DNA of 64,000 bases from Candidatus Cloacimonadales bacterium (GTDB taxonomy: Bacteria; Cloacimonadota; Cloacimonadia; Cloacimonadales; DAONDQ01). The stretch is from the NCBI GenBank assembly GCA_963662275.1, contig OY759316.1, positions 1,152,001-1,216,000 on the forward strand, in the 5' to 3' direction. Shown here in pieces: positions 11,616-40,500 of this stretch. Below the pieces are notes generated by a model that searched no databases, was not told the origin of the DNA, and saw nothing but the letters and a program-made list of their open reading frames with translations. Made by a program: the position numbers and the translations under genes. Every line of letters starts with the position of its first letter. Position 1 is the first letter of the stretch.

Positions 11616-13476
11616 GAGACTGTTCATGAAGTTATTCATAATATTCAATAAGTTAGAAAGTAGCAAGTTGAAAAAAGTGGTCGAAACGGTCATAATTTAA
11701 CATACCTTCCAGAATTGACAGATAAGCTCTGCTAAGGACACCAAATCACAAGTTAAGCTTTTTGACTAAAATTGAAAAACACGCGATTATAAGTAATGTT
11801 TCGAAGCCGTTTCTGACTAAATGTGTAGTTAAAATCATATAAAATAGTTCTTTACAAGTTTTTTGCTATAGCTTCAATGGCATTTGTTACCTGGTAACAA
11901 AAGGGAGGATATTATGACAAAAAAACACTCCAATTCAAGAAGCGGTAAGTGTTAGTCATGAAAGTAACCAATACCATGTAAGTATTAACGTACCATTTTC
12001 ATTCACTTTGCCTGAGACAACATCAAACCACAAGTTCTTAATAGCGTTTCTACGCTTATTAGTAGGAATAGGCGGAGACAACCTCCTTACACTTCAGCAA
12101 ATAGCTGATCTGTTTAACTACGCAGACCGCAGGAATGTACATAATTTCTGGCAAGAGTTTGAGCAGCATGGTCATGATATCCTGGCATATTTAAGCCGGA
12201 AAGTTGACCTGCTGGAGTGTATTCCTCAGATCGAGAATTTTGTTATCAATAACCTGCTTTTACCTTTAAATGTCATGTATCAGGAGTTCATCAGCCATCA
12301 TGATTTTAAAATGTCCTATACCACTTTCTGCAAATATGCTTCTCAGGTCAATTCTCTGTCTGTAGTTAAGCAAGCTCAGAAGCTTCTTCTGAAAAAGACA
12401 GTAGGCGGTGATGCTGTACATCTGCTGAAACTGCTTGCCGGTCAGCAGAATACACCTGTTATCTGTGACAGACTCCTGGAACAAATGAAGACTGCTAAAG
12501 GCAATACATCCCATAGAACCGCCGATGCAAAGCCGTTCCATAGTCTGGAACGCAAGAACCTGTGTCTGCTGGTACATTACCTGGTTGGAAGCGGTATGAA
12601 CTTCGAGACGATAGCTTTGCTGCTCAACACCTGTAAAGCTACAGTCTCAAATCTCTGGCATGAAATCGCTGACCTGCAGAGCCTGATTCTGAACTCAATC
12701 GGTAAGTGGAGCGGAAAGATCAGCATTGATGAGAAATATGTGAAGATCAAAGGTATTCCGTACTATGTCATCAGTATTGTTGATTTTGTGACTCACATCC
12801 CTCTGTTTTGTGAGTTGTATCCTGACACAAAGAAAGAATCATTCGAAGCATGTTTCAGAACCTTCAGACAGCTCTACAGGAAAGATCCAACCCTGATTGT
12901 CAGTGATGGCAGTAAATCGTTAGCAGTTGCAAGAAAAACAGTGTTTCCAAAAGTCCATTACCAACTCTGTAAGTTCCATAAGATACGAAATCTCTTCAAA
13001 AGAATCAGTCAATGTCATCTCCCTGAAGACAGGGACAAGTTCTTTAAGAAGAGGATTATGAAAGCTTTCCGAAGAGAAACGGCGGGCGGAAGGAAAAAGG
13101 GTATCGCAAGCCTGACAGCTATTACTCCCCCAACCGCCGCCGAATACATCAAAAGCAATATCATTAGTGATTGGAGACACCTCAGCAAAGGTTTGACTTC
13201 CAATGTCTCTGAACGCTGGAACCGCAAAATCAAGAAGGTGACATCCGGTAGATTTGGACTAAAATCTGAAGAAACCACCCGCAACCTTGTGTTTTCGCTT
13301 TGGTTCAAAGAACTGGTCGATAAAGGTCAACCAATCATGCGTCAGGAATCACTTTTAGCAAGTTTAAATATCTCCCGCATATGTCAAGAAAATGTGGATT
13401 GGTCGCACTTAGACCACTTTTTCTCTGTCACTACCAATAAGGCTGCGTAAAATGGAGGTTAATTTTGAACAGTCTC
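11616..13476 (+). mobile_element. Insertion sequence, 1861 bp, DDE type (IS6/ISH6-like, family uncertain)
   Basis: 11-bp terminal inverted repeats GAGACTGTTCA (11616-11626) and TGAACAGTCTC (13466-13476); 8-bp direct repeat CATTAACA at 11608-11615 and 13477-13484. Confidence 0.9.
12008..13450 (+). CDS. DDE transposase; the true start is probably 11914 across a frameshift
   Basis: ISIDEKYVKIKG, IVSDG, YQLCKFH, TSNVSERWN. Confidence 0.85.
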   Translation: MPETTSNHKFLIAFLRLLVGIGGDNLLTLQQIADLFNYADRRNVHNFWQEFEQHGHDILAYLSRKVDLLECIPQIENFVINNLLLPLNVMYQEFISHHDFKMSYTTFCKYASQVNSLSVVKQAQKLLLKKTVGGDAVHLLKLLAGQQNTPVICDRLLEQMKTAKGNTSHRTADAKPFHSLERKNLCLLVHYLVGSGMNFETIALLLNTCKATVSNLWHEIADLQSLILNSIGKWSGKISIDEKYVKIKGIPYYVISIVDFVTHIPLFCELYPDTKKESFEACFRTFRQLYRKDPTLIVSDGSKSLAVARKTVFPKVHYQLCKFHKIRNLFKRISQCHLPEDRDKFFKKRIMKAFRRETAGGRKKGIASLTAITPPTAAEYIKSNIISDWRHLSKGLTSNVSERWNRKIKKVTSGRFGLKSEETTRNLVFSLWFKELVDKGQPIMRQESLLASLNISRICQENVDWSHLDHFFSVTTNKAA

Positions 13477-22882: not shown

Positions 22883-23022
22883 GGAGTTCACATGATAGCT
22901 AAAATTTTGAGTTCAATTGCCCAAGCAAAACTATCAATTACCACCTGGCTAGAAGGGAAAATGGACTTCAAACCGACCTTTCATCCCCGGTAGCAAAAAC
23001 TGCTTTCTGGGAAGTTCAAACC
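22883..23022 (+). repeat. Dispersed ~130-140 bp structured repeat, copy 1 (diverged)
   Basis: Aligns by eye with 24592-24735 (minus) and 27977-28106 (plus). Confidence 0.75.
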
Positions 23023-23255: not shown

Positions 23256-23559
23256 TGGCTTTGTAGCTTACATTGCCAATGTGTTGTGTCCAATTCCGCT
23301 GAGAATATCCAAAAGCGTGAAAATAAATGAAAACTTAGTACCATCCTAACAAAATCTAAGAAAGTCTAGATAATGCCTAGATGATTCCTAGATTATCCCT
23401 AGATGAAACATACATAATTTTATAGCTGGCTTCTTTGTTAACTATTAACTATCAGTTGCAACTTGGGAAGGGGGGAAGGGGGGTCTTAAGGCGTGTGAGA
23501 ACAATTCTTATTGCCTTCCTAAAACCGCACCCAAATAAGTATGTTACTAGAACACAAAA

Positions 23560-23662
23560 AGCTAGTACTCTGAAGCTAACCAAAATCTTAAATACTTTAG
23601 GAGCTGGTTAGGAGCTGACTAGGATCTGGTTAGTATCTGGTTACTATCTCATTTGAATGCCA
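23560..23662. repeat. 11-bp periodic element (taggagctggt), copy 1
   Basis: Second copy at ~56296-56395 sharing aaatactttaggagctggttag...tatctcattt. Confidence 0.75.
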
Positions 23663-23755
23663 TATGAGTGACTAAAAGGTTACTTCTTTTCGTACTATTA
23701 CAACGCACGGGGTGCGTTGTGCCACCTCACGGGGTGAGGCGTTCCTCTGTAATTT

Positions 23756-24472
23756 CTAATTTCCTATCAGTCTTCTCACATATCTTTGTCCATATTCATA
23801 TGCATCGGGGGTATCAATATCCAGCCATTGTAATGGATTTAGTATTTTCACAGCTTGCATTCGCTGATTTTGAATCAATACCTGGATAGCACCGCTGATT
23901 GATTCACTTCCTCTGGTTAGAGCTGATTCAACCGCTGTAAAGAAATCTTCTTCCAAGCGGAAAACTCCACAGTCTATGCCGTTGTAAACAGCAATTTCCT
24001 TACCGATATGAATGATTTTATTACCTTCACAGAAAACTTTAGTGGCATCGTCTATATCGTGAATGCTGTCACACCAGGGATCCACCAGGAGCAGGTTGAT
24101 CTTACCAGGGGCATTCACAATACTCTTCAGGGCATCAACAGCTACAATATGATCGGACATGGAAAGAATGAAACTTTCATCCTGTACGTAATCCCTTGCT
24201 TTATACACAGACAAGCCGTTACCGCGTTCCCATTCCAGGTTTTCGATGAATGTTATCGGTACTCCAAGATCAGTTTTTTCAATGTAGTCTCGGATATATC
24301 TCTGATTAAATCCCACTACAATCCCGAATTCAGTAACACCGGATAGTTTGAGCTGATGAATAATCGTGGAAAGAATCGAACCACCCGCATAGGGGAGAAG
24401 CGTTTTTGGAACTTGGTTACTGAGGTTCCACAAACGACTTCCGAAACCGGCTGCTATAATGACTGCTTTCAT
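23756..24472 (-). CDS. Nucleotidyltransferase, inositol-1-phosphate cytidylyltransferase (IPCT)-like
   Basis: AAGFGSRL..PK, GNGLS, FILSMSDH, DATKV, IGK, DCGVF, WLDIDT match the IPCT pattern as I recall it; ino1 upstream. Confidence 0.75.
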   Translation of the reverse strand: MKAVIIAAGFGSRLWNLSNQVPKTLLPYAGGSILSTIIHQLKLSGVTEFGIVVGFNQRYIRDYIEKTDLGVPITFIENLEWERGNGLSVYKARDYVQDESFILSMSDHIVAVDALKSIVNAPGKINLLLVDPWCDSIHDIDDATKVFCEGNKIIHIGKEIAVYNGIDCGVFRLEEDFFTAVESALTRGSESISGAIQVLIQNQRMQAVKILNPLQWLDIDTPDAYEYGQRYVRRLIGN

Positions 24473-24591
24473 GATATACCTCGAATTCTGGTAATTTTCC
24501 CTCCCTTTGGATAAAGGGAGGGATTAAGGGAGAGTTTGATTCTCTGCGAGGTTGGACTTCAACCCTAATAATAGCAACGTTGCAACATTCT

Positions 24592-24735
24592 GGTTTGTAC
24601 TTCCCTGAAAACTAGTTTTCGCTACCGATGATGAAAGATCGGGTTTGAAGTCCGAATGCCCTTTTAGTCAGGTATTCAATGATAACTTGTTTAGGGCATT
24701 TGAACTCCAAACTCCATAGCTTACATCTATACTCA
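24592..24735 (-). repeat. Dispersed structured repeat, copy 2, bracketed by inverted ctccctttatccaaagggag elements
   Basis: Reverse complement closely matches 27977-28106; flanks 24497-24541 and 24741-24790 are inverted partners. Confidence 0.8.
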
Positions 24736-24780
24736 AATGAATCAAACTCTCCGACCTGAAGGTCACCTCCCTTTATCCAA

Positions 24781-25010
24781 AGGGAGGAATGGGTCTGCTG
24801 ACGCGGACCCCTACAAGCTACAAGCTTCATCCGAAGGGAGGAATGGGTCTGCTGACGCGGACCCCTACAAGCTACAAGCTTCATCCGAAGGGAGGAATGG
24901 GTCTGCTGACGCGGACCCCTACAAGCTACAAGCTTCATCCGAAGGGAGGAATGGGTCTGCTGACGCGGACCCCTACGAGTTATAAGCTTCATCCAAAGGG
25001 AGGAATGGGT
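24781..25010. repeat. 54-bp tandem repeat (four full units plus a partial) containing a REP-like hairpin
   Basis: Units start at 24781, 24835, 24889, 24943, 24997; hairpin gggtctgc-tgac-gcggaccc followed by CTAC. Confidence 0.95.
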
Positions 25011-25081
25011 TTCATCGGTGTATCTCGAAATAATTTCTCAACCGTCTAAAGGCGGAGCTACAAATCATCCGTGAACCGTCT

Positions 25082-25474
25082 CCTATCACTAACACCTATC
25101 ACCTAACACCTATCACCTAACACCTATCACCTATCACCTAACACCTAACACCTAACCCCTAACACCTAACCCCTATCACCTAACCCCTATCACCTAACCC
25201 CTATCACCTAACACCTAACACCTAACACCTAACACCTATCACCTATCACCTAACACCTAACCCCTAACCCCTAACACCTAACCCCTATCACCTAACCCCT
25301 ATCACCTAACACCTAACACCTAACACCTAACACCTAGCACCTAGCACCTAACACCTAACACCTAACACCTAACACCTAACACCTAGCACCTAGCACCTAA
25401 CCCCTATCACCTATCACCTATCACCTAACACCTAGCACCTAACACCTAACACCTATCACCTAACACCTAACACC
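25082..25474. repeat. Long degenerate heptamer microsatellite (cctaaca/cctatca/cctagca/cctaacc)
   Basis: Roughly 55 units; supplies the last codons and stop of CDS 25460-26572. Confidence 0.95.
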
Positions 25475-26572
25475 TTCTGCAAAAAGTTCTTCCATTCTTT
25501 CTATAAAACGCTCGGATGCTTTACCATCTAATTTATAGAAGTACCTGCTTCGATATTCATTGGCTTTTTCTATCATTCCAGGAGTTGGATGCAGAGCAAT
25601 CTCGATAGCTTCAGCAATTTGTTTTCCGGATTGGATATGTGGAAAAGCCCCTTTCAGGAATTCACGATTATCAATTTCCAGTAGGGGTTGTCCATCGGAA
25701 TGCTTTAAATCATCACAGGGAAGATCATAGACAATACCGAATTTCTCAAAAGCAATAAAATCAAATACAGTGCTGGATGCTTCACTTAATATTGTATCAG
25801 CAGCGAAGTAATATGGAACGATGTTGTATTCATTGAAAGGCAGCAAGACAGCATGCATGTATTTTTTAACAAGTCTTTCGTAGATGGAGTGTTGTTTATG
25901 CGGTGCATATTTCCCCATCCAGCTATAAGGATGAAGCTTGATGATAAGGTTATAATCCTTCGTCTGCTCGAAAATATCCTTCCTGATATCATACAGGCAG
26001 GTGGGTTTATAGGTTGGAGCAAATAACACTGTCTTCTTGCCTGGATCAAGACCCCACTTATTCAGGATGGCATCACGATCGTAACGTCCCTGGAAATAGA
26101 AGTCCAGTTTTGGAAGACCAATCAATTGGACTTCACTCGTTCCCAGGTCAGGGCATTTCAGCAAAGAATCAACACGATGCTGACCTTCTACGAAGATTTG
26201 ATATCGAACTCCCTTCGACCTCGCAAGATTGCGGTAAAGGATGTTTTTGATACCTGTACCATGATTCAGGAAGATAAGGAGTGTCTTACCAAAGTCCTTG
26301 GCATTACGTATGGTATCACCGGAAATGACGATATCAAAGCCTTTTGTTTCCCTGGTGAATCGGTACCCCTGTTTCTTCCATGCTTTGATGATCTTGCTGC
26401 GATAGGGAAATTCAAAGAAAAAGTATTTTTTCTTTTCGATATCGAGAGAAAACCACACATCATACTTCGAATTATTCAATAATAATTCGATAATAGGATC
26501 AAAAGCAGCCTTGTGGTAAACGTATCCGATCTTAAAGAGAAGTTTGATTTTCTTCAAATGCTGCTTCTCCAA
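25460..26572 (-). CDS. CDP-glycerol glycerophosphotransferase (TagB/TagF-like) family protein
   Basis: FLNHG, GLPKLD, LFAPTY, IKLHP, SEASS..FDF, DGKASER. Confidence 0.85.
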   Translation of the reverse strand: MEKQHLKKIKLLFKIGYVYHKAAFDPIIELLLNNSKYDVWFSLDIEKKKYFFFEFPYRSKIIKAWKKQGYRFTRETKGFDIVISGDTIRNAKDFGKTLLIFLNHGTGIKNILYRNLARSKGVRYQIFVEGQHRVDSLLKCPDLGTSEVQLIGLPKLDFYFQGRYDRDAILNKWGLDPGKKTVLFAPTYKPTCLYDIRKDIFEQTKDYNLIIKLHPYSWMGKYAPHKQHSIYERLVKKYMHAVLLPFNEYNIVPYYFAADTILSEASSTVFDFIAFEKFGIVYDLPCDDLKHSDGQPLLEIDNREFLKGAFPHIQSGKQIAEAIEIALHPTPGMIEKANEYRSRYFYKLDGKASERFIERMEELFAEGVRC

Positions 26573-26575
26573 AAA

Positions 26576-27895
26576 CTACATGGAATCGTAATATTCCAGT
26601 CCGAGATGAGTGATTAGATCTTCCTTCATCATATAACGCAGCGTATTCTTCATCTTCGTTTGCTGGATGAAAAGATCGTTCTCTGGATGAAGATTTGGAG
26701 CAGCCATAGGACTCTTCCAATAGAAGGAAAGCCATTCCTGGACTCCGTACATATCGCAGCGACGTGCTAAGTCTGTGAAGAGAAGCAGGTCGAGCAGTAC
26801 CGGTGCTGCCAGGATGGAATCACGGCAGAGGAAGTTGATCTTAATCTGCATGGGGTAACCAAGCCAACCGAAGATATCGATGTTATCCCAGCTTTCCTTG
26901 TTGTCACCGCGTGGCGGATAATAATTGATTCTGACTTTATGATAGATATTACTGTAAAGTGCCGGGTATTGCTCAGGTTGCAGGATGTCTTCGATTACGG
27001 ATAATTTACTGACTTCCTTAGTTTTGAATGATTCTGGATCATCCAACACTTCACCATCACGATTACCAAGGATATTTGTGGAGAACCAGCCGTTCAAACC
27101 AAGCATGCGGGCTTTGAAACCCGGAGCAAGAATAGTCTTCATAAGAGTCTGACCAGTCTTGAAGTCCTTTCCGCCCACAGGACATTTGTTTTGTGCTGCT
27201 AATGCACGGAGGGCAGGAACTTCCAAGTTGAGATTCGGAGCACCATTGATGAACGGGATTCCCATTTTTAAGGCTGCATAGCAATAGATCATGGAGGGGG
27301 AGATGGCATGGTGGTTTTCCATCATTGCTTTTTCAAAAGTTTCTATTGTATCATGTATGGGGTCTGGTTTCATATAAATTTCAGTGGAAGCAACCCAAGC
27401 CATCATCACACGGTTGAGACCTTTTTCTTTTTTGAAGTTCTCGACATCAGCCATTAATTGTTTGGCAAATTCAAGCTTGTTAGGAGCTTCTTTCACATGT
27501 GTACCATGTAAGTTCTTACAATATTCAGGATTAAACACAGCTTTATGTGGTTTCAGTTTACGAAGTTCAGGTTCGATCTGATCAAGCAGTGTCTTTTCCA
27601 AAACACCGGCTTTCAAGGCAGCTTCATAAGCATCCGCTTCAAAGATATCCCAGGCTAAAAACTCAAGATCTTCAAGTTTTGCCAATGGCACAAAGTCCTT
27701 TATCATGGGGTGTCTGTCTTCTGTGCGTTTGCCCAATCGGATGGTTGCCATTTGAGTTACAGAACCGATGGGTTCAGAAATACCTTTTTTTATCGCTTCA
27801 ACACCGGCAATGAAAGTAGTTGTAACTGCACCAAGTCCAACAATTACGATACCAAGCTTGCCTTCAGCAGGTTTAATTTGATCACCACGTAACAT
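26576..27895 (-). CDS. ino1: myo-Inositol-1-phosphate synthase
   Basis: GLGAV, GKDFKTGQT, NILGNRDG, GDNKESWD, CRDSILAAP. Confidence 0.95.
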   Translation of the reverse strand: MLRGDQIKPAEGKLGIVIVGLGAVTTTFIAGVEAIKKGISEPIGSVTQMATIRLGKRTEDRHPMIKDFVPLAKLEDLEFLAWDIFEADAYEAALKAGVLEKTLLDQIEPELRKLKPHKAVFNPEYCKNLHGTHVKEAPNKLEFAKQLMADVENFKKEKGLNRVMMAWVASTEIYMKPDPIHDTIETFEKAMMENHHAISPSMIYCYAALKMGIPFINGAPNLNLEVPALRALAAQNKCPVGGKDFKTGQTLMKTILAPGFKARMLGLNGWFSTNILGNRDGEVLDDPESFKTKEVSKLSVIEDILQPEQYPALYSNIYHKVRINYYPPRGDNKESWDNIDIFGWLGYPMQIKINFLCRDSILAAPVLLDLLLFTDLARRCDMYGVQEWLSFYWKSPMAAPNLHPENDLFIQQTKMKNTLRYMMKEDLITHLGLEYYDSM

Positions 27896-27976
27896 TTGTA
27901 CTCCTTATCTAAGCTTGTATTTTGAAATATAGGTGAATGAGACCGACTCTTGAGTCAAGAAAAAAGTTTAAACTGG

Positions 27977-28106
27977 GGAGTTTACATGAAAGCTGAGGAT
28001 TTGGAGTTCAAATGCCCTAAACAAATTATCATTGAATACCGGATTAAAAGGGCATTCGGACTTCAAACCCGACCTTTCATCATCGGTAGCGTAACCTGCT
28101 GTCAGG
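27977..28106 (+). repeat. Dispersed structured repeat, copy 3
   Basis: tttggagttcaaatgccct...agggcattcggacttcaaa long stem. Confidence 0.8.
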
Positions 28107-28196
28107 TATATTCAGCGCACAGATGAATTCATTCTGTTCTCGCTCAGACGAGATACTATATGAATAAAGCGATACACTATATGAATAAAGCGTTAC

Positions 28197-28229
28197 AAAA
28201 CAGCCGGTAGGGGATACCCTGCCGGCTGT
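28197..28229 (-). terminator. Intrinsic terminator of the large secreted protein gene
   Basis: acagccggtaggg/ccctgccggctgt hairpin with a T tract on the minus strand. Confidence 0.65.
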
Positions 28230-28255
28230 ATGTTAGTATTGTTTGATTTGATTAT

Positions 28256-31200
28256 TTATTTCATCAGTAACATCTTCCGAGTTGAAGAGTATTTTCCTGC
28301 ATACATCTTGCAGTAGTATATACCACTAGATACCTGGTTTCCATTTTGGTCTTTACCGTTCCATAATACCTTGTAGGTACCTTTGCTCTTGGTATCATTA
28401 ACTAGTGTACGTACCAATTGACCTTTCATATTGTAGATTTCAACTTTCACAGGAGCAGCATCTTTGACAGAGAAAGACAAAAGAGTAGTACCCGTAAATG
28501 GATTTGGATAATTGCCAAGAAGTTTTGTAGCTGTAACTACTCCTGGGTCTGATGTGGAAGTAAGAATTAACAGGAAGTTCAATACCAATTGCTGTCCGGC
28601 AATAATAGTCACATTTTGGGTATCCGTTGGGTATCCCTGTACCATGCACTGGACAGTTTGTTCACCCTGGGGCAAAAGCAGTGAGTAATTCCCATCAGCA
28701 TTCGAGAAAGTGGAATAGCTGCCAGATGAAATCCTGGCGCCATTGATAGGTGTATTAGATGTTCCATCAGAGACAAACCCAGTTAATGTTCCGAAGACCA
28801 CAAGCGGGGTTTCCAGGATATTGGAAAAAGTGGGCTGAGATGGAATATTGCCTGTGTAGATTGCTTTGACAGCCCATTCATAGGTACCGGAAGGCTGAGT
28901 ACTCCAAGCTGTATCAGTGAAATTAAGTGTATTAATGGCATCTTGAGTAAGTAACACCCAAGTTCCTTCATTGCTTTCCTGACCTGAGTTGAGTCTCCAG
29001 ACCTGATAACCGATGAGAGATCGGGTAAGTGTCCCGGTCTTGTTAATCTGTAAACGGGAAGTAGCTTGTTTATTACTATCAGGAAGAATTGGAGCCAGCC
29101 ATGTGAGATTTACACTGGTATGGTCAAGGCTCTCTGATGCGCTTAGTCCTGCAGGTGTATAAGGAACCTCATTCAGATTGAAATCCTGTGTGAGAGTACT
29201 ATCCTGTATGATTATTACCGTAATCGTCTGGTCATGGAATCCAAAGTAACTGGCAGTTACCTGGTGTTCTCCTATGGGGATATTACTGATCATGTAGTTA
29301 CCTAGTTCATCCGTAATAGCTTGACCACCGTCAACAACTTGAACTGTAGCATTAGGCAGCGGTTGATTATCGATTCCATAGACATGCCCTTGTAATTGAC
29401 CTTCTTCAATAGGAATGGGAATGGTTTCTATGATTACATCGTCAACATACAATCCGCGGTAAGTTCCTCCCAGTCCATGCATAAAAGCAACATAATGACC
29501 GCTTTCGGTAGAGTCTGCAAGATGGACGGTGTATTCAGTCCAAGCTGCAGCCAGGGTGATGGATTGTAATTCCGTATATGTAGCTGGGTCAAAAGGAGTA
29601 CTAATTCGACCTACTGACAGAGTATAATTGTTTTGATAACCTCGTGCCCAGAACGTGATTTGTGTTGTATTCAGATTGATTGTATCCACCAAAGGCGGTG
29701 CAACCAGGAGGATAGTACCTGCATTGTCTGTATTATTATATAAGTCTGCACTATTGGGTGAACTATTTGGAGCTACGATTACAGATGTAACAGTAGTCAC
29801 AGAACCATTGGATGTTGTTGGTACATATTTCAGCCAGTCCAGTGGTAAGCCAGGAGTTGTGACTCCATCGAAGTTCTGTGAATAGGGAAGAGAGTATATG
29901 GTAGGGTCGTAGCATGAGCCTTGCAGCGGTATTAAGTGGATCGCTCTTTTCCAATTCAGGTTATCAGCGATGGTGATGACTGCATTGCTCAAACCGGCTG
30001 CTGTGGGTTGATATATACAACTAAAGGTACTAGTTTGTCCGGCTTCGATAACCAGAGGAAACACAGGTAATCCTGAAAGTGAATACATTTCGCTACCAGT
30101 CACAGCAATGCTGTTTATTGTCAGAGCAGTGCTTCCCGAATTAAATATGACAAATGATTGTGTATTGATGCTATTCATCAGGACACTGCCCCAGTCTTTG
30201 GCTGATGGGTTGATTCCAAAGACAGGATTGGGATTTACCGGGTAATACGTAAATGAGGTCTTTGGAAATTGTCCTGATAGAGTACTGCCAGTGGTTGGAG
30301 GACTGGTAGGATCATATGTGACTGTGCTGCTGTAAATGTTGCGTGAGCGGTTTGTTCCTACAGTTTGGCATTGGAAGAGATCACTGCTATTGTAGGAAAG
30401 AGCTTCAATTGGTCTGTTGACCATCATGACCAGGTTGCCGCCTGTATAAGTATAAGGAGTTGTGAAACTGACATGTACTATGTTTTGTCCTGTTGGATAA
30501 TTCACGGTACCATCATAAACCTGGGTGAGTAGGGTTGAAGCAATCCAGCCAGTACTCAGGTCTGATTGAGCTGTTGTTCCGAGCCAGATTTTGGTAGGCA
30601 TGGCTGCCAGGTTGGATACAAAATTATTGTAGAATGACACCTCTGTAATCATACCGAAGGTATCAATTTCTGTACTTTGAAAGACGGTTTCAAAGAGGCT
30701 ATTGCGGTAATACATATCCATCGGAATCATAGATGTTTGATTTCCACTACCAATTGTAATTAGATGAATCCCTGCTTCCTGTACAGTAAGATTAATTGAA
30801 GAACTCTGGTCGTTCACAGTAATTGTGTCTCCAACCAATATCACTTTACCGTAGATGGTTATATCACCTGTTGCAGAAGGTGTCCAGCTAACTGTGACAG
30901 TAGCCGAAGTCAAGGGTTGGATTGCAATGCCGGGAACAGAAGCCAGTTCCGTATCACCAGACATGATTTTTACTAAATAGTCAGACTGCGCAGCAGTTCC
31001 AGCATTACGAACTGTAATCCTGTACCTGGAAGGTATCCCCATGGTAGGTGTGATATTCCCGCTGATACTTAAGCAAGCCATATTACTGGGAACTTGTATA
31101 ACAGGATTGAAATTATAGATTACATTGCTGCCTGGAAACGCAGCAATCGTTGACATTTCAGTTGTGGATGAACTCGTTGCAGGTGAACCGGGGGTTACGC

Positions 31201-31774
31201 TGAGATAATTATCGCTTCCTCCAGTGCTCATATTGATTCCAATGGAAGCAGAAGGACTAGTTGGTGTCCCAGTGGCATTGCCATACACAAATTCGATCTT
31301 ACCATTTTCGTAGAGCTTTGCCTGGAAATCAAATGTCGAAGCTGAATTGTTATTCCATTTACAGGTTGACCATTGGCAGGTAAAAACCCGGTTAGGCTCT
31401 GTACCTTCCGTAATATAAGCAGCTCCGCCTCCCGTAAGGTTAAGGTTATCCCACAAGGGAGCGACAACCGGACATACTGTCGTGCTTACCAGGCTGTTGT
31501 TTTGTGAAGTACTGGTACCAATAGTGCCAAGGTACATGAATCCGTTGGATGACATCTTGATTTGAGTATAAGTGTTCAGTCCATAGGGAAAGGAAAAGCC
31601 GATATCCAAGGCACTGGAAAGGACATTGTCTCCCAGTATCGTGGTGATGGCAGTACCCGTTATCGCATTGTAATTCCCAGTTGTTGAACTGAATGTGTAG
31701 TAGTTGCTGATCTGTGCAGTGAGGCTGCTAATAGACAGAATGAGAATGAGCAGGGGCAATAGATAACTCTTCAT
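28256..31774 (-). CDS. Large secreted surface protein (CARDB/Ig-like, choice-of-anchor-like and carboxypeptidase-regulatory-like domains, FlgD-Ig/T9SS-type CTD)
   Basis: Signal peptide; APLWDNL; C-terminus NYPNPF..IYNMKGQLVRTL..WNGKD..SSGIYY..KMLLMK. Confidence 0.85.
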   Translation of the reverse strand: MKSYLLPLLILILSISSLTAQISNYYTFSSTTGNYNAITGTAITTILGDNVLSSALDIGFSFPYGLNTYTQIKMSSNGFMYLGTIGTSTSQNNSLVSTTVCPVVAPLWDNLNLTGGGAAYITEGTEPNRVFTCQWSTCKWNNNSASTFDFQAKLYENGKIEFVYGNATGTPTSPSASIGINMSTGGSDNYLSVTPGSPATSSSTTEMSTIAAFPGSNVIYNFNPVIQVPSNMACLSISGNITPTMGIPSRYRITVRNAGTAAQSDYLVKIMSGDTELASVPGIAIQPLTSATVTVSWTPSATGDITIYGKVILVGDTITVNDQSSSINLTVQEAGIHLITIGSGNQTSMIPMDMYYRNSLFETVFQSTEIDTFGMITEVSFYNNFVSNLAAMPTKIWLGTTAQSDLSTGWIASTLLTQVYDGTVNYPTGQNIVHVSFTTPYTYTGGNLVMMVNRPIEALSYNSSDLFQCQTVGTNRSRNIYSSTVTYDPTSPPTTGSTLSGQFPKTSFTYYPVNPNPVFGINPSAKDWGSVLMNSINTQSFVIFNSGSTALTINSIAVTGSEMYSLSGLPVFPLVIEAGQTSTFSCIYQPTAAGLSNAVITIADNLNWKRAIHLIPLQGSCYDPTIYSLPYSQNFDGVTTPGLPLDWLKYVPTTSNGSVTTVTSVIVAPNSSPNSADLYNNTDNAGTILLVAPPLVDTINLNTTQITFWARGYQNNYTLSVGRISTPFDPATYTELQSITLAAAWTEYTVHLADSTESGHYVAFMHGLGGTYRGLYVDDVIIETIPIPIEEGQLQGHVYGIDNQPLPNATVQVVDGGQAITDELGNYMISNIPIGEHQVTASYFGFHDQTITVIIIQDSTLTQDFNLNEVPYTPAGLSASESLDHTSVNLTWLAPILPDSNKQATSRLQINKTGTLTRSLIGYQVWRLNSGQESNEGTWVLLTQDAINTLNFTDTAWSTQPSGTYEWAVKAIYTGNIPSQPTFSNILETPLVVFGTLTGFVSDGTSNTPINGARISSGSYSTFSNADGNYSLLLPQGEQTVQCMVQGYPTDTQNVTIIAGQQLVLNFLLILTSTSDPGVVTATKLLGNYPNPFTGTTLLSFSVKDAAPVKVEIYNMKGQLVRTLVNDTKSKGTYKVLWNGKDQNGNQVSSGIYYCKMYAGKYSSTRKMLLMK

Positions 31775-33670: not shown

Positions 33671-34474
33671 TTACTCAATTTCTGCAGTTCTCAAAATACG
33701 GACAAGTTCCGACATCCCCTCCTTAAAATGACCAGAACTGAGATCAAACCATTGCAACTTACTCAAAACATGCTCTTCATGATTTGGTAGCAACTCCATA
33801 ATCTCGTTAAGATCAACTAGCGATACTAGCAAAATACTCTGTCGTTGTGATTTTTGTATCGTTCCAATTGAGTCGACTATTTCCTTAAGACAAAATGGGT
33901 TTTCAAAAAATGCTCTGTTGATCAGTAATAAAACGTAGCCATTTTGGATGAAATATTCTAAAGTCATTGCAATTGAGTTAATCCAATCAGATTTTGTATG
34001 ATTATCGTGATTGTAATAGATACTAAAACCTTCATGAGAGAGGTAATCAATTATTTGATGGGCTATTTCGATATCTTGATTTGAGTAGGATAGAAATATG
34101 GTTGCACGTTTTGATAAGCGAGTGAGTTTGTATTGTTCGAACTGAAGACCTCTTTCTAGATTAATTGTTTCAACAACCTTTCCTTCCTTTTCCATCGACT
34201 TTACTAAGTTCATTTCTCTCATAACAGACTTAGAACTCTGAGCATCTGGACTATCACAGATTAAAAACCATTCACGAGCTCTGATTTCACGTTCAATAAG
34301 TTTCCAAAGCAATTCATCATCTGATTCTGTATCCTCCATGCATTTGAGGTAGAATAATACAGGGTTGTGACCTAAACTTTCAAGTTCGTTTCTTATCTCA
34401 CGAACCTTCTCAATATCCTTATTTGAATGAGAAACGAATATCCAAGCTCCTGAACCATTGTTTGGTGTATTCAT
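33671..34474 (-). CDS. Tandem TIR-TIR domain protein
   Basis: WIFVSHSNKD...VMRE and IFLSYSNQD...FCLKE. Confidence 0.8.
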   Translation of the reverse strand: MNTPNNGSGAWIFVSHSNKDIEKVREIRNELESLGHNPVLFYLKCMEDTESDDELLWKLIEREIRAREWFLICDSPDAQSSKSVMREMNLVKSMEKEGKVVETINLERGLQFEQYKLTRLSKRATIFLSYSNQDIEIAHQIIDYLSHEGFSIYYNHDNHTKSDWINSIAMTLEYFIQNGYVLLLINRAFFENPFCLKEIVDSIGTIQKSQRQSILLVSLVDLNEIMELLPNHEEHVLSKLQWFDLSSGHFKEGMSELVRILRTAEIE

Positions 34475-34520
34475 TTCAAATCTCCAATATCTTCACTAAA
34501 ACATATCCTGCCTAACTATC

Positions 34521-34775
34521 TTACAAAAAAAAAGGACGGCATTTGTTGATTTCATCCAGGCATAGCTTCAGTGTTTCTTTGCGAGTATTCTGTTCTTCAT
34601 TAATCCCCCAGCGCAAATCTACTTCAGTCAATTCCACATGTCGTTCTCTGCAGAAGCTACGCAGTTCCGGCCAACAGTGGCTCATGAGTTCATTACGCTC
34701 TTCCATCATATCACGGAAGGTGGAAGAGACAAAGATACGGATACTACGGTTATCGGATTTCAGGTTATCTGGCAT
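34521..34775 (-). pseudogene. Truncated DUF4062-domain gene
   Basis: IRIFVSSTFRDMMEER..VDLRWG..CLDEINKCRPFF, then a stop after a T9 run; the LLGxRYG motif is missing. Confidence 0.75.
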
Positions 34776-34799
34776 ATTGCCCTCCTTCAATGAATCGTA

Positions 34800-37556
34800 T
34801 TATTTCGGCTGAACAATCACAGTAACCTGCTCGGGGTTTTCCTTTATTTCAACTTGGAGTTTTGCCTTATCCTCTGTCGGTTTCTTAGATGTTGTAAGAT
34901 TAACCTCTTTTACCTTCTCTACTGTATAACCAGCTTCTGAAAGGAATTTAGGGATATTTTTCACTATTATTCTATCTTTATCCTTTTCTTCCTTAGAAAG
35001 TTCCGTTCTTCCCATCCTGGCAGCAATCCAAGGTTCAATGCCAGCCCATTCCTCCTCACTCATCACCCGCCAGGGAAGGAGGCAATTGTGATATAGTTTT
35101 TCCTCGTCTCTTACTTTGTTATATACCCAACCTCGACTGAGTTTGGATAAGCACCAGCGCCAGTGTTCCTTTTCTGCAAGAAACTCGATTTCTTCTTTGC
35201 TAAGACTAATGGATTTCTGATTAGCACGGGCTGGATAGAGAATGTAGCCAATTGATCGCAATTTCTCCACAATATCCTTCACATTTTGACGATTCTCTAT
35301 CTTGAAATCTTCTTTTAAACCTTCATAATCTTCGTTTGCCTTCGCTGAATTCACATTTGCACGATATACCGTGTGAACGCTTGCAGCAAGCTTTTCGAGC
35401 AATTCGTCCTTCAGCACCGGAGCTTGCACCAAAGCCAGGAACTCACGTCCATTCACATGGATATTCAATTGTTCTTCAGGAGGGAGGCAAGAACGCTCAT
35501 AATAGCCTTTTCCGTTTAATAAGCTGGAAGAAATGATAGACTCAATAGAACGTACCCCATGTTTATATTCGGAAATACAGAGAAAAGCATGAAGAACACC
35601 TGGATCGATCTTGACCTTATCAGTCTTTCCTTCCCGTTGAACGATCTTGGGTGCATGCCTGGTCAGTAATTCGCGAAGCAATATAGCTCTTCTAATGATA
35701 TAGTGAGAATCAGGAATGCCGTTCGTTGATAGAGGATTTGGACCAATAATATTGAGAAAGCCATGCAGACGACTTACGAAGTCAGGTCCTTTGACATTAC
35801 GGAATTCAGTGTTTGCTCTGCCTTTATCGAACTCAGTGATAGAACTTGCAGTACCACCTGCAAATACAAAGACAGCTTTACCGATATGATGAGTGACCTG
35901 TCCATCCTGGAATTCGCCATCCTGCATTGGGGAAAGAAAATAGCGAAGCCATTCTTTATCACCTGTGTCAAACTCATCCCAGAATACAAGAGGAATCTTT
36001 CCTGCCAATCCTATATCACGTACCTGGTGAAGTGCGCCTACCAATTCAGAAGAATCTCCAAACTGGGAGATATTAAAGGTGATATCGACTATTTTATCTT
36101 TCGCTATGGCACGTGCCACTTGTTTCACACCGAAAGATTTACCAGCACCAGGAGGTCCAAAGACAGCTAAACACAGGGGGCGATGTTTCGGTTCGCTGAC
36201 ATATTGCTTTATCAGGGCACTGATGCTTTGATATCCCTCGATTTCTCGACGATCTGCTGTTACAAAATCATTGAATATTCCTAAAGGTACATTCTTAAGT
36301 GCTGACTTGTATCCATCTGTCACAATCTGTTCAGCAATGGTTTCAAGACTGGGTTTGTCTTCGTCACCCAATACACCAGGCTGATCATACATCTCATCGA
36401 GAATTGTCCAGGTTCCGCTCCGATAACCAATTGGCAGGTGTAGAGGATCGAGATTCCTGACAGGATTCTGTACTTTAACTACAGATAAGTTCTCTTCGTT
36501 ATCTATCTGGGATGCTATCAAGTCTAATGGAAATACAGGTGGAGTGAGCTTGTCATTGCTTTTCTGCGGACCAAATCCTTCTTTTTGCAGATTTCTCATG
36601 GCATTCACACCACAACAGATCGCTGCGTTTAAGTCCGGAGCAGAGGATTTCATAAGCTCATTAACAACAGAAGCAGTTAAACAAACAGTATAACCTATCA
36701 TCATACCTGGATAGGGTTTTGCCCAAGTACCTTCATAATAATTTGGATCAAAGAATAACAGGCAATCCCAATCTTCAGGCTTGTTCTTCTTCAAAAGCAA
36801 GGCACCTTCCGGTCCGATGGAAACAATGACATAAGCACATTCAGACAAGCTGCTTACACATGGATTGTGGGTTAGTTCCCAAAACAAATCCTGAGCCATT
36901 CTCTCCCAGGAAAGTTCTCTGCTCACGTGGATGGAAGTACGGCGTAAATCTGTGAGTGTGAGTACCGCGATGGTTCGATCAGCATGATGTTTAACGATAT
37001 GATGCCATATTTTACCTTCTTTCATTTCCGCAACAGGACTGGCAGATTTGACAATAATCCAGCTTGGCTTTTTACCTTTTTGAATGGCTTTGGGCCATAA
37101 CTCCTGGTGATCTCTAAATCCTAAACCTGCATCATCAATAATGACAATATCTGCGGTTTCCGGGTTTTCGACAGGGGCAGTTATCTCACATGTATCTGGC
37201 GTATCACCGCCACAGAAACTGTCTAATCCAATGAATTCTGCAACTCTCCATACGAGATTATCCTTGTCTTTATCAGTCTTGTCTGAAGGTTCCCAAATGG
37301 CATAGGAATGATGGACTCTATGGTCATTGGGTAGCAGCGGTGTTGAAGGAAGTTCACTCTTTATTAAATGTATATCCATTCCCTTACTGGATTTGATTTC
37401 CTCAATCAAATCACTCAGCATGGCTGCACCACCAGATTGTAAACATGCCCGTGAAGTATCCACAGCATTCCATGCCTGACCACCGGTCTTTCCCTTCTTA
37501 ATCCGTGCAATGTTCCAATCTGCTGTGACATCACCCGTTATGATAATGTGTTTCAT
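34800..37556 (-). CDS. Multidomain protein: PfkB/ribokinase-like N-terminus, P-loop AAA-like ATPase, C-terminal RyR domain
   Basis: IIITGDVTADW..GGAA; GPPGAGKS, LVFWDEFD; LAEKEHWRW..GWVY..RD..HNCLLPW..EKDKDR. Confidence 0.75.
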   Translation of the reverse strand: MKHIIITGDVTADWNIARIKKGKTGGQAWNAVDTSRACLQSGGAAMLSDLIEEIKSSKGMDIHLIKSELPSTPLLPNDHRVHHSYAIWEPSDKTDKDKDNLVWRVAEFIGLDSFCGGDTPDTCEITAPVENPETADIVIIDDAGLGFRDHQELWPKAIQKGKKPSWIIVKSASPVAEMKEGKIWHHIVKHHADRTIAVLTLTDLRRTSIHVSRELSWERMAQDLFWELTHNPCVSSLSECAYVIVSIGPEGALLLKKNKPEDWDCLLFFDPNYYEGTWAKPYPGMMIGYTVCLTASVVNELMKSSAPDLNAAICCGVNAMRNLQKEGFGPQKSNDKLTPPVFPLDLIASQIDNEENLSVVKVQNPVRNLDPLHLPIGYRSGTWTILDEMYDQPGVLGDEDKPSLETIAEQIVTDGYKSALKNVPLGIFNDFVTADRREIEGYQSISALIKQYVSEPKHRPLCLAVFGPPGAGKSFGVKQVARAIAKDKIVDITFNISQFGDSSELVGALHQVRDIGLAGKIPLVFWDEFDTGDKEWLRYFLSPMQDGEFQDGQVTHHIGKAVFVFAGGTASSITEFDKGRANTEFRNVKGPDFVSRLHGFLNIIGPNPLSTNGIPDSHYIIRRAILLRELLTRHAPKIVQREGKTDKVKIDPGVLHAFLCISEYKHGVRSIESIISSSLLNGKGYYERSCLPPEEQLNIHVNGREFLALVQAPVLKDELLEKLAASVHTVYRANVNSAKANEDYEGLKEDFKIENRQNVKDIVEKLRSIGYILYPARANQKSISLSKEEIEFLAEKEHWRWCLSKLSRGWVYNKVRDEEKLYHNCLLPWRVMSEEEWAGIEPWIAARMGRTELSKEEKDKDRIIVKNIPKFLSEAGYTVEKVKEVNLTTSKKPTEDKAKLQVEIKENPEQVTVIVQPK

Positions 37557-40500
37557 AATTGCTCCTTATAGCTATATCCATTAGAGTTAAGCAACTCGAT
37601 TATCTTTCTATATTCCTGAATATCTTTAGGAGAGAAAGACATCTCCATCTTTTTCATATCATGAATAATACCCGCTACTTTCAGATAATCATCTAGATAA
37701 TCGTTCATATTATGTTTTCTCTTAAACTGAGCGATTTTATAAAGATAAATCCATAAATCCCTTTGCCATTCTGCATTAGAAGAGTCTCTTTTAACCAATT
37801 TTTCAATAATTCTAAGAGCTGCTTTTTTATGATTCAATGCATATGAGACTTTATTCTGGCTCTCATAGATTTCGCTTGTTATTTCATAAAAAACAGATAA
37901 ATCCCTCTGATATTCTGTATTTCTTTTGCTAAATATAATTAGCTTTTTGATAATTTTCTTTGCAATTTTTAATTCAGATAAAGAATCAGTTAAGTTCCCC
38001 TTTTCAAGGAATATTTCGCCCAACCTTCCATGAATGAGTGCTAAATCATAAAGAGAATTGGGATTATCAGGAAAAGATGTAACCAAATTATCCCTAATTT
38101 TCATACATTCATGATATATTTCAAGAGCTTCTGATAGACTACTTCTGCCTAGTTCTTGGTGGATTCCGCCTATTTTCATATATAATACAGATAAACCTCG
38201 TTGCCAATCTGCATTCTTTATATCATACTTGAGAAGATTTTCATAGATCTTAATACCTGCTTGGTATTTGTTTTGCGCTTGACGGAGTTTTCCTTCTGCT
38301 CTTAGGACATCTCCCAATTTCTCGTAACTAATACATAGTCGCTTCTGCCAGGTAGTATTATCTGGTTCAGAATCCGTTAATCTAATCATTATTTTCAAAC
38401 TAAGCTCATAATCCTCATGTGCTCTGGCATGTTTACCCTGTTGAAGATAGATTTCACCTATATTTTGGAGCCAGTCAGATAGGTCACATTGCACTACTAA
38501 GTTATCAGGTTCAATTTCTGTAATATCCCGAATTATTTCTATAAACTCTTGGTATTCAGTCAGTGCAGCAGGTAAATTACCTTCTTTCCTAAATACTATT
38601 CCAACAAATTGATGGCTGATTGCTAAATTCTTCTTATATTCTATATTTTTAGGATCTAAATCAAATAATGTTTTTGCTATCGATAATCCTTCCTGAAATT
38701 CTTGTAAGGATTTTTGTAATTTTTCTTGTCTTAAAAAACATTTGCCAACTCTATTAAAGCTGATACATAGATCGGATTTGTACTGTAGACTATCGGATTC
38801 AGATTTTGCTAATTGCTTAGCAATCATGAGACCCTTCTGATGTTCTTTTAGAGCGTCTTTTAGGTTATTTTGATATTCATAAATATCCCCTATGTTTTGA
38901 TAGCTTACTGATAACTCGAAAAGGAATTTGTTTTCATTCGGATTAGATGCTACAAGTTCACTTCTTAATTTCTCACTCTCCTTACAATCATTTAGAGCTT
39001 TATTAGTATATCCCAAAGCCCAGTGTATTTTCCCAAGACGATCATAAACAACTGCTGAAAATCTTTGCCTCTTAGTACTATCTTGAGCTTTCTTCATTTG
39101 TATTAATTCTCTGAGGACACTTTCAAGTATTACTTCTCGTATTTTGAATCTGCCAGTATGATTTAGAACATCATCAAGGTCTTGCAGGAATAATTTGTAC
39201 AAATTATAATACATATCCTCCGATTTAAGCTTTTGATCTAATAATTCACAAACCCAGTACAAAGATAGATTATCTGAACAAGTTTCACCAGATAGCAAGT
39301 AATCCAGAAGTGTTTTAAGGGAAGCATCATTGCTTTGTTCGGGTTGGGATCCACTTAAGTATTCTGCAGCTCTTTTCTTATCATCTGCTGCAATTAAATG
39401 CCACATAGTCTCGCTGACATGAATAGGATCGTCGCTTTTCAGCCTTAAAAGGTGGTCGCAAATCAAAGAATGCAGAGCTTTATTCATTTCAGTATCTGAT
39501 TGAATAAGATTCAAGACTTTCTGGATATGATATACAGCAGCTTCCTGCATCTGCTGATGCATAAATTTCCATCTTCCACTACTTCCGCTTTGGATTAATT
39601 GTCCTCGCAAACCACGTCGAATTACTGCAAACTTCAATGGATCCCAAACGATAGACAGAGAATCTGAAAAAAGCACTTTAGCTGCATTTGGAAGCATGGT
39701 TTCAAAATCCATCTCCCGCCAACCTTGACGACTGACAGCAACCAAAGATACAATAGATGCAACCCATTCTGTTCCATAAGTCTTTTCTAAGCGAGTTAGT
39801 ATCCATTCATATAATGCGGATACATCTCCTGGCACATTATTCGCAAGATGTTCAGAAGGATCATAACCAGCTTTGTTAGCCAATGAATAATCATCTTCGT
39901 CCAATAAATTCAATTGCTCTAAGGCAAGGCTCAACCAAAGAGGATTCATAAAAGCTTTTTCTTCTTTAAAATCAAGCTTTGTTAGAATAATAGATTTTGC
40001 TCCAAAACTTACTTTACGGTGATAACGTTCATATATAGCAGTGATAATTTCTACAGCATTTTTTTCTGTAAGACCTTCAAGTTCAAATTCTAAAACTCCT
40101 GCCCATTGAGCTAAGCCATCTGCCGCTTCTCCTTCTATTGCAGTTGCGATGATCCTTGCATTCAGAGGCCAGGGACGTTTCAGCCAGGTCATGTGCAAAC
40201 CACGGGTAGTAGGATTAAACTGATTCAAGGCATCGATTAGTACCACCACACGCTTTTTCACAGAAGAACGACTCAGTAACGATGCGAAAGTATTATCTAA
40301 ATCTTCTTCTGTATATTTCTCAGATAGTGGATTGGTAATTTCCAAGAATGATGAAAGCTCTGTTATCCACCTGAGGAGCATGGAATCTACATCACCGGAC
40401 TGCGGAGTGATCCCTGCTGCATGGGATAAGTGAAGGATACTTTCATCTTGTTCAAATTCACGATACAGCTTAGCAAAGAGAGCGCTTTTTCCTGTCCCCG

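Follow-up and report, generated by a model that had tools for sequence, protein, structure and literature searches.

A candidate CDP-inositol pathway for decoration of lipopolysaccharide encoded by an ino1–TagF–IPCT gene trio in a Cloacimonadales bacterium

We analyzed a stretch of 64,000 nucleotides from the genome of Candidatus Cloacimonadales bacterium (contig OY759316.1, positions 1,152,001 to 1,216,000; hereafter, the window) with a focus on three co-oriented genes, which encode a myo-inositol-1-phosphate synthase (Ino1), a transferase of the TagF/TagB family, and a protein resembling inositol-1-phosphate cytidylyltransferase (IPCT). Judged from the families of these proteins and the gene context of their relatives, the trio most likely makes activated inositol phosphate and attaches it to the lipopolysaccharide (LPS) of the outer membrane. 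In its specific form, the proposal is that Ino1 and the IPCT-like enzyme make cytidine diphosphate (CDP)–inositol and that this donor supplies the inositol phosphate that the TagF-like enzyme attaches to lipid A–core, a scheme whose chances we put at about even. The evidence consists of the recurrence of the trio in related genomes, the complete co-occurrence of its TagF-like and ino1 genes in Cloacimonadota, the similarity of the cytidylyltransferase to characterized IPCTs, and the LPS-core-type neighborhoods in which the relatives of the transferase gene lie.

Results

Gene trio and family assignments

The genes of the trio are arranged as follows (window coordinates).

26576-27895, minus strand: ino1, myo-inositol-1-phosphate (inositol-3-phosphate) synthase, 439 amino acids (PF07994 and PF01658)
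25460-26572, minus strand: TagF/TagB-family (PF04464) GT-B phosphotransferase gene, 370 amino acids, TTG start
23756-24472, minus strand: IPCT-like cytidylyltransferase gene, 238 amino acids (PF00483, NF041135)

An earlier reading based on the DNA letters alone (the sequence-only reading) had described co-oriented ino1, TagB/F-family, and IPCT-like genes with a gap of 3 bp between the first two. The minus-strand open reading frames (ORFs) and their Pfam and NCBIfam matches bear out this description, including the gap of 3 bp between the ino1 stop codon and the TagF-like gene. All three frames are intact and of full length, and their products are 74–89% identical to same-genus orthologues. Ino1 scored above the gathering thresholds of both Pfam profiles of its family, matching PF07994 over the full profile (E = 7.5e-99, 331.6 bits versus a cut-off of 25) as well as PF01658 (E = 2.3e-34, 118.3 bits versus a cut-off of 27), and it is 88% identical to its same-genus orthologue (locus L012).

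A scan of 48 window ORFs, each of at least 100 amino acids, yielded no match to PF01066, the profile for CDP-alcohol phosphotransferases, in agreement with the sequence-only reading, which had found no such gene in the window and had proposed a search for DIPPS elsewhere in the genome. That search revealed a single PF01066 gene, which scored as PgsA (TIGR00560, 155 bits versus a cut-off of 109.1), and no CDP-alcohol phosphotransferase of the DIPPS or BEPIS type was found in the genome. A PF01066 protein that would use CDP-inositol, fused or adjacent to the cytidylyltransferase as in pathways of the di-myo-inositol phosphate (DIP) or BEPIS type, was likewise not found.

Linkage and co-occurrence

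Scanning a single genome for each species, we found 279 stretches that encode a relative of the TagF-like protein. Gene linkage was determined for the best 80 of these 279 stretches by tblastn with the three window proteins, with a threshold of E ≤ 1e-15 for the IPCT-like protein. An IPCT-like gene was present in the same cluster as the TagF-like gene in 68 of the 80 loci, and ino1 was present in the cluster in 21, so that the linkage for which the sequence-only reading had suggested a synteny search was indeed detected elsewhere. The arrangement is not a matter of chance, given that the trio recurs in these 21 loci in three gene orders: ino1-TagF-IPCT; TagF-ino1-IPCT, for which the IPCT-like protein is only 35–38% identical to that of the window; and TagF-IPCT with ino1 convergent. 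The gene order in Gemmatimonadota was IPCT-TagF. Among the 12 loci with no IPCT-like match, four (L034, L040, L042, and L044) are cut off by the end of the contig no more than about 1.6 kb past the TagF-like gene, six belong to a WOR-3-like clade, and two (L033 and L061) lack the gene despite having sufficient space for it.

Co-occurrence was determined in 151 evenly sampled genomes of Cloacimonadota; these genomes are related, so that the counts are not independent. A TagF-like orthologue (67–100% identity) was present in 21 genomes, only a paralogue (37–43% identity) in 34 others, and ino1 in 25. Every one of the 21 orthologue carriers also possessed ino1; the two genes were neighbors on one contig in 20 of these genomes and were located on different contigs in the other (G095). 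The orthologue was present in none of the 126 ino1-negative genomes. The distribution was patchy within genera, with both genes being present in only 1 of the 16 genomes of genus g29, for example, and we therefore conclude that ino1 and the TagF-like gene were gained and lost together.

In the four ino1-positive genomes without a TagF-like orthologue, ino1 and the IPCT-like gene were flanked by other TagF-family genes. The order in one of them (G019) was a gene for an MsbA-like protein (our label for proteins with ABC_membrane and ABC_tran domains), a TagF-like gene, an ORF without a Pfam match, DUF6165, glycosyltransferase family 9 (GT9), a second ORF without a match, TagF-like, a third ORF without a match, TagF-like, ino1, IPCT-like, and TagF-like. 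GT9 genes and DUF6165 were also present in the stretch from G149, and an MsbA-like gene together with a TagD-type cytidylyltransferase gene (PF01467) in that from G055. In G158, ino1 and the IPCT-like gene are surrounded by two TagF-family genes, and the 6 kb read contained neither a GT9 nor an MsbA-like gene.

Three loci of other Cloacimonadota (L097 to L099) contain three to four different TagF-family genes each, beside ino1 and an IPCT-like gene. GT9 and DUF6165 are present in L097 and L098, an MsbA-like gene in L097 and L099, a second nucleotidyltransferase gene in L098, and a TagD-type cytidylyltransferase gene in L099. These loci suggest the attachment of several different phospho-alcohol decorations to one glycolipid.

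IPCT-like cytidylyltransferase

The IPCT-like protein matched PF00483 (E = 1.5e-16) and also PF12804. Its best NCBIfam model was NF041135 (IPCT/DIPPS; E = 1e-39, 136.7 bits), with the match covering the IPCT half of the model (profile positions 1–214 of 419). The score is far below the equivalog score of 580 bits, a cut-off set for the bifunctional protein. Comparison with solved structures yielded three IPCTs as the best matches, 4jd0 of T. maritima (E = 4.4e-22) as well as 2xme (3.3e-18) and 4mnd (1.8e-17), both of A. fulgidus, with scores of 82, 69, and 67 bits, respectively, compared with 35 bits (7e-8) for the next match, 27 bits (2.4e-5) for LicC, and 25.5 bits (7.3e-5) for the phosphonate enzyme 6pd1. 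By sequence, the closest characterized relatives of the protein thus appear to be IPCTs.

The protein is 74% identical over 237 amino acids to its orthologue in L012. NF041135 was the best model for eight of nine related nucleotidyltransferases scanned, with the second nucleotidyltransferase of L098 matching TIGR03992 best. Homologues are automatically named "1L-myo-inositol 1-phosphate cytidylyltransferase" or "choline kinase" by JGI and "sugar phosphate nucleotidyltransferase" by NCBI. A source of inositol phosphate is linked to the IPCT-like gene in the form of ino1, in the window as well as in the 21 loci mentioned above.

TagF-like transferase

The TagF-like protein is encoded by the only PF04464 gene of its genome and matched this profile over residues 147–360 only (E = 9.2e-15, 54.9 bits versus a cut-off of 22.1). 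A search for relatives yielded 807 proteins at E ≤ 0.001, the best 120 of which are all 70–91% identical to the query and are named from Cloacimonadota, candidate division KSB1, Zixibacteria, and Calditrichota. Identity over the best 80 loci ranged from 89% in the same genus through about 60% in Gemmatimonadota to 52–54% in the WOR-3-like clade. Sequence comparison thus places these proteins in a distinct and highly conserved clade. In a quick tree of the clade, in which the rows for L030 and L060 represent a shorter second TagF-family gene (that is, paralogues), the ino1-negative genomes followed organism groups.

To gain insight into the fold of the protein, we obtained a structure model with AlphaFold2 (pLDDT of 83.5, pTM of 0.85), which predicted a two-domain GT-B fold. 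The best Foldseek match of the model was TagF of S. epidermidis (3l7j, E = 4.9e-11); the three structures 3l7j, 3l7l, and 3l7i gave E values of 5e-11 to 3e-10 with TMq values of 0.65–0.68, and next came two capsule polymerases resembling TagF, 8qoy and 8a0c, and then TarL (8va1). The predicted GT-B fold therefore appears closest to that of TagF, with the scores of UDP-GlcNAc 2-epimerases being nearly equal to those of the TagF matches. A search of solved chains with a sequence profile found only Cps3D (E = 1.2e-6), indicating that the clade is remote from characterized members of the family.

Four motifs were invariant in all 22 aligned TagF-like sequences: NHGTGIK (containing H104), APTYKP, KLHPYSW, and SEASSTVFDF. 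The SEASST portion of the last motif aligns with TDYSS of Cps3D. These motifs may be the counterparts of active-site motifs of the TagF family (H444 and H584 of TagF). The protein is net basic (57 K and R residues versus 46 D and E residues) and contains no hydrophobic segment, its maximal hydropathy over 19 residues being 0.96. Its size of about 370 amino acids is nearer to that of TagB-type enzymes, which perform a single addition.

Envelope context

Pfam annotation of six loci from other phyla (48 ORFs) showed that the TagF-IPCT pair of the relatives sits in LPS-core-type neighborhoods. The genes in a Zixibacteria locus (L055) were TagF, IPCT, MsbA-like, GT9, Wzy_C/WaaL-like, and GT9; those in a Caldithrix locus (L030) were GT2, GT87, GT9, TagF, IPCT, a second TagF-like gene, and MsbA-like; and those in a Gemmatimonadota locus (L072) were an epimerase gene, MsbA-like, IPCT, and TagF, followed by GT4 genes. 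GT9, MsbA-like, and WaaL-like genes, the components expected of an LPS core locus, are thus located with the pair in relatives.

We also counted these families across the 80 loci with iterative hidden Markov models (HMMs) built from Pfam-checked seeds, the results of which were mapped back onto the loci by tblastn. At least one GT9 gene was present in 35 of the 80 loci, at least one gene for an MsbA-like exporter in 23, and at least one WaaL-like gene in 5, and the nearest copy was on the same strand and no more than 600 bp away in 17, 7, and 0 loci, respectively. The density of GT9 genes was 37 ORFs in 1.07 Mb of loci (iterative HMM), versus 4 in the 4.38-Mb genome from which the window derives. 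Three of these four GT9 genes are located at 51.7–55.6 kb of the window, in the following block.

50004-55951, minus strand: LPS-core-type block comprising ThiF, TatD, GT9, GT9, GT2, GT9, and DUF6165 genes (Pfam)

In L021, L027, L030, L036, and L042, the gene immediately upstream of the TagF-like gene is an orthologue of the GT9 gene at 51699-52721 (44–55% identity), and a ThiF-TatD-GT9 block follows immediately after the IPCT-like gene, in convergent orientation, in seven Cloacimonas-type loci (L013 and others). The genome itself encodes LpxC and a Kdo transferase and therefore makes LPS. The sequence-only reading had proposed LPS, a capsule, or a teichoic-like polymer as the target of inositol phosphate transfer; the GT9 and MsbA-like counts support this proposal and narrow it to the LPS core.

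Discussion

Proposed mechanism

Inositol-3-phosphate is the known product of Ino1 and CDP-inositol that of IPCTs, and enzymes of the TagF family move polyol phosphate from CDP-polyols with the release of cytidine monophosphate (CMP). On this basis, the module would decorate a lipid-linked glycan of the envelope with a phospho-alcohol. Ino1 would convert glucose-6-phosphate to inositol-3-phosphate, which is established chemistry for its family, and the IPCT-like enzyme is predicted to form CDP-inositol from inositol phosphate and cytidine triphosphate (CTP). The TagF-family GT-B enzyme, which is probably soluble or peripheral, would then move inositol phosphate from CDP-inositol to a hydroxyl group of a glycolipid at the cytoplasmic face of the inner membrane, with the release of CMP. 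The gene context of the relatives points to the inner core of lipid A–core as the most likely acceptor, and the decorated molecule would subsequently be flipped by an MsbA-type exporter. Either one residue or a short chain might be added.

A wider form of the proposal is that the LPS of Cloacimonadota, Calditrichota, Gemmatimonadota, and other phyla of the FCB group is modified with myo-inositol phosphate, perhaps in the form of a short poly(inositol phosphate) chain, added by the TagF clade from CDP-inositol. We regard this extension as tentative, with a chance somewhat short of even.

Counterevidence and alternative explanations

Several results weigh against the proposed pathway, and they are set out here together with the alternatives on which they bear. 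With regard to the supply of inositol phosphate outside Cloacimonadota, a PF07994 search of 20 genomes of other phyla that carry a TagF-like gene found ino1 in only 10 (all five Gemmatimonadales, three Calditrichota, one Krumholzibacteriota, and one Entotheonellaceae). The profile was not found in four of four Zixibacteria, one KSB1, one Ignavibacteria, one Delongbacteria, and two WOR-3-like genomes, or in a Gemmatimonadota chromosome of 5.0 Mb, with this last case not being explained by incompleteness because the chromosome is complete. In a 57-row alignment of IPCT-like proteins, with 37 columns showing conservation of 95% or more, no column discriminated the ino1-negative genomes (7 rows) from the ino1-positive genomes (29 rows). 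NF041135 was also the best model for the proteins of the ino1-negative genomes, and the substrate of the IPCT-like protein is therefore probably the same everywhere. Either the ino1-negative carriers obtain inositol phosphate in some other way, or all of these proteins share a substrate other than inositol phosphate. Moreover, published work on Caulobacter describes an enzyme, CpgD, whose top structural match is 4JD0 and yet whose product is CDP-glycerate (PMC12275187). By analogy, an IPCT fold alone would not prove that the substrate is inositol phosphate.

All of these observations would suit an alternative in which the cytidylyltransferase and the TagF-like protein use another phospho-alcohol, such as phosphoglycerate (the substrate of CpgD) or glycerol phosphate, and Ino1 of Cloacimonadota serves a different need. 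We consider this alternative unlikely. The co-occurrence with ino1 in Cloacimonadota is complete and is accompanied by adjacency, and ino1 is found in three gene orders and next to other TagF-family genes as well. No other consumer of inositol phosphate was found in the genome, and the IPCT-like protein is far closer to true IPCTs than to LicC or the phosphonate enzyme. Its similarity to IPCTs also exceeds that of CpgD, for which an identity of 24% to 4JD0 is reported (PMC12275187).

A different fate for inositol phosphate is suggested by three Calditrichota (L092, L094, and L095), in which ino1 directly follows a gene for a CDP-alcohol phosphatidyltransferase of 224–228 amino acids, with overlapping stop and start codons in L092 and L095. 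The best model for the phosphatidyltransferase of L092 was NF052561 (E = 1e-51), which represents phosphatidylinositol phosphate (PIP) synthase of the B. thetaiotaomicron type. In the same three genomes, the TagF-like gene is located at a separate locus, with an IPCT-like gene beside it in L030 and L036 and none in L061. This arrangement suggests synthesis of inositol phospholipids in Calditrichota, and, as far as gene order and family can tell, ino1 of these three genomes also, or instead, feeds lipid synthesis, a further point against the proposed pathway.

The TagF-like protein might itself be a synthase for lipid head groups, transferring inositol phosphate to diacylglycerol, dialkyl-glycerol, or ceramide as a nonhomologous replacement of BEPIS. 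The bacterial uses of CDP-inositol described in previous studies are indeed in lipids or solutes (PMC4587543, PMC9246714), and no other candidate for an inositol-lipid synthase was found in the genome. An identity of 70–80% across phyla would befit an enzyme of core lipid metabolism, and a basic protein without a transmembrane segment is what would be expected of a peripheral membrane enzyme. The context of the relatives, however, consists of GT9, WaaL-like, GT4, and GT2 genes rather than of genes for lipid synthesis, and the pairing of ino1 with a PIP synthase–like gene apart from the TagF-like gene in the three Calditrichota makes a separate role for the latter likely there. To our knowledge, no TagF-family enzyme acts on diacylglycerol. 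We therefore judge a lipid synthase to be improbable.

The remaining points against the pathway concern the window itself. Given that the GT9/ThiF-TatD block adjoins the module in relatives, and that the nearest GT9 genes in the window are 24 kb from the trio, the module has been separated from its usual neighbors. A promoter and terminator scan of positions 23500-28400 revealed no excess over shuffled sequences (8 versus a mean of 11.8, and 2 versus 3.2, respectively). In addition, the IPCT-like gene is set apart from the other two genes by repeat DNA, as the sequence-only reading had noted, with the 987 bp at 24473-25459 being made up of the following repeats, the last of which also extends into the TagF-like gene.

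24473-24770, unstranded: 298-bp stretch of a dispersed repeat family (blastn)
24771-25010, unstranded: 54-bp tandem repeat, 4.4 copies, 96% matches (TRF)
25089-25475, unstranded: heptamer tandem array, unit CTAACAC on the plus strand, 55.3 copies (TRF and sequence)

The dispersed family has 224 blastn matches genome-wide, the longest of which are 130–145 bp with 88–92% identity, and copies are also present on either side of the trio, at 27978-28106 and 22905-23022. Parts of the 54-bp unit recur elsewhere in the genome (110 blastn matches). The heptamer array overlaps the 3' end of the TagF-like gene and supplies its last codons and stop codon; the array is absent from the same-genus relative, in which the gap between the TagF-like and IPCT-like genes is only about 25 bp. 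The TagF-like protein of the window ends in EGVRC*, whereas the conserved form in relatives is EGGHEN. The HEN motif (EGGHEN or a near variant) was present in all 21 aligned relatives and is missing from the window protein; the same-genus orthologue has EGTHCNE. Comparison of the sequences thus indicates that the array replaced the last residues of the TagF-like protein.

Given the 987 bp of repeats that interrupt the operon and the change at the C-terminus of the TagF-like protein, the local copy of the transferase may be impaired and the activity of the module reduced in this genome. In the extreme, the module might be decaying and no longer functional here, whatever its ancestral role, a possibility that is compatible with the other alternatives and is suggested by the replacement of the HEN motif and by the distance of the IPCT-like gene from the rest of the operon. 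However, the three frames are intact, of full length, and conserved relative to same-genus orthologues, and the loss is limited to the last few residues of the TagF-like protein; we thus doubt that function has been lost.

The possibility that the product is a soluble inositol phosphodiester, a compatible solute resembling DIP with the TagF-like protein in the role of DIPPS, draws on the identity of Ino1 and IPCT with the first half of the DIP pathway and on the absence of a membrane segment from the TagF-like protein, but it is highly improbable in view of the envelope-glycan context of the relatives, the action of TagF-family enzymes on membrane-linked acceptors, and the fact that DIP is typical of (hyper)thermophiles, whereas Cloacimonadota, Gemmatimonadales, and Zixibacteria are largely mesophilic. 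Transfer of inositol phosphate from CDP-inositol to the LPS core thus remains our preferred explanation.

Other features of the window and genome

An ORF of 126 amino acids at 24612-24992, within the repeats, had no Pfam or NCBIfam match and was rejected as spurious. The genome as a whole contains 26 tandem arrays with a period of 7, including that at 25089-25475, each of at least about 85 bp, with units including CTAACAC/CTAGCAC and CTGTACG/CTGTACC among others. These arrays resemble the short tandemly repeated heptamers of cyanobacteria. The genome consists of a single contig of 4.38 Mb, a size that exceeds those of all but one of 40 relatives (1.3–5.6 Mb).

Adjoining ino1, at 28256-31774, is a gene for a surface protein of 1172 amino acids with CarboxypepD_reg domains and sorting by the type IX secretion system. 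A possible defense island at 33671-41401, between the module and the LPS-core-type block, encodes a TIR-domain protein (267 amino acids), an RyR-domain protein of 918 amino acids, and a STAND-like protein of 1282 amino acids with DUF4062, AAA_16, and TPR domains. Restriction-modification genes at 56668-59041 encode an N6/N4 DNA methylase and an endonuclease of the MvaI/BcnI family; the same region contains an ORF of 156 amino acids with a BsuBI/PstI endonuclease domain, possibly a fragment. An ORF at 12008-13450 encodes a transposase of the MULE/Mutator family (480 amino acids).

Novelty and implications

The combination of a half for making CDP-inositol with a TagF-family transferase was not found in the literature that we searched, outside of which lie most subscription journals. 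The same search revealed nothing linking Cloacimonadota and inositol or TagF-like enzymes and inositol, no inositol phosphate–modified LPS, no TagF-family enzyme in the titles and abstract openings of papers on CDP-inositol, and CDP-inositol only as the donor for the thermophile solute DIP and for inositol lipids. The DIP solute and the lipid of R. marinus are described as products of membrane CDP-alcohol phosphotransferases, and such an enzyme has also been proposed for a Bacteroides cluster (PMC4587543, PMC9246714).

If our proposal is correct, the TagF-like protein would be the first consumer of CDP-inositol other than a CDP-alcohol phosphotransferase, CDP-inositol would be a new donor for the teichoic-acid enzyme family, and the product would be the first inositol phosphate–modified LPS, a modification so far undescribed in bacteria that would place a new anionic, eukaryote-like head group on bacterial LPS. 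The organisms that carry the module are abundant, uncultured anaerobes, with the 279 species-level genomes mentioned above encoding a relative of the TagF-like enzyme. The prediction is testable with two small soluble proteins, and Caldithrix provides a cultured carrier; a metagenome-assembled genome named Caldithrix abyssi contains the TagF-IPCT pair, with ino1 at another location.

Comparison with known systems

The ino1-IPCT-BEPIS operon of Rhodothermus marinus is described as directing CDP-inositol–dependent synthesis of an ether inositol phospholipid (Jorge et al. 2015, as cited in PMC4587543). It resembles the module in its combination of ino1 with an IPCT gene, in its CDP-inositol donor, and in belonging to an FCB-group bacterium. 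Its transferase is a membrane CDP-alcohol phosphotransferase (PF01066), however, whereas that of the module is predicted to be a soluble GT-B enzyme of the TagF family in an LPS-core context. The alternative inositol-lipid cluster proposed for Bacteroides vulgatus comprises genes for MIPS, an NTP transferase, a CDP-alcohol phosphatidyltransferase, and a HAD hydrolase, and it was not confirmed experimentally in that study (PMC9246714). Here, too, the MIPS gene adjoins that for an NTP transferase predicted to make CDP-inositol. Unlike this cluster, the window yielded neither a PF01066 match among the ORFs scanned nor a HAD-family match, and it contains a TagF-family gene instead.

The IPCT/DIPPS enzymes of hyperthermophiles (2xme/4mnd and 4jd0) are the closest solved relatives of the IPCT-like protein and correspond to its best NCBIfam model. 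Unlike them, the IPCT-like protein is neither fused to nor encoded beside DIPPS; its score of 136.7 bits is far below the cut-off of 580 bits, and Cloacimonadota, in contrast to the hyperthermophiles, are mesophilic.

TagF, TagB, TarL, and the capsule polymerases share with the TagF-like protein the PF04464 family, the (here predicted) GT-B fold, and an expected CDP-polyol donor. The TagF-like protein differs from them in being a single-domain protein of 370 amino acids that belongs to a distinct clade, with only Cps3D being found by profile-sequence search. It is paired with an IPCT-like enzyme instead of one of the TagD or TarI type, and the locus to which it belongs is likely one for LPS core rather than for a group 2 capsule. 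A precedent for the family in diderms is provided by Cps3D (8qoy) and Bcs3 (8a0c), capsule polymerases of Gram-negative pathogens that resemble TagF (PMC5974469).

The CpgD/CpgA system for ceramide diphosphoglycerate in Caulobacter resembles the module in that an IPCT-fold enzyme provides a CDP-activated phospho-acid for an envelope lipid; the substrate of CpgD is phosphoglycerate, unlike the inositol phosphate proposed here (PMC12275187). A search of the Caulobacter control genome gave no PF04464 match, and the transferase of that system is therefore not a PF04464 protein. Overall, sequence similarity suggests that the module shares its donor-making half with the R. marinus operon, the B. vulgatus cluster, and IPCT/DIPPS, and its transferase family with the capsule polymerases.

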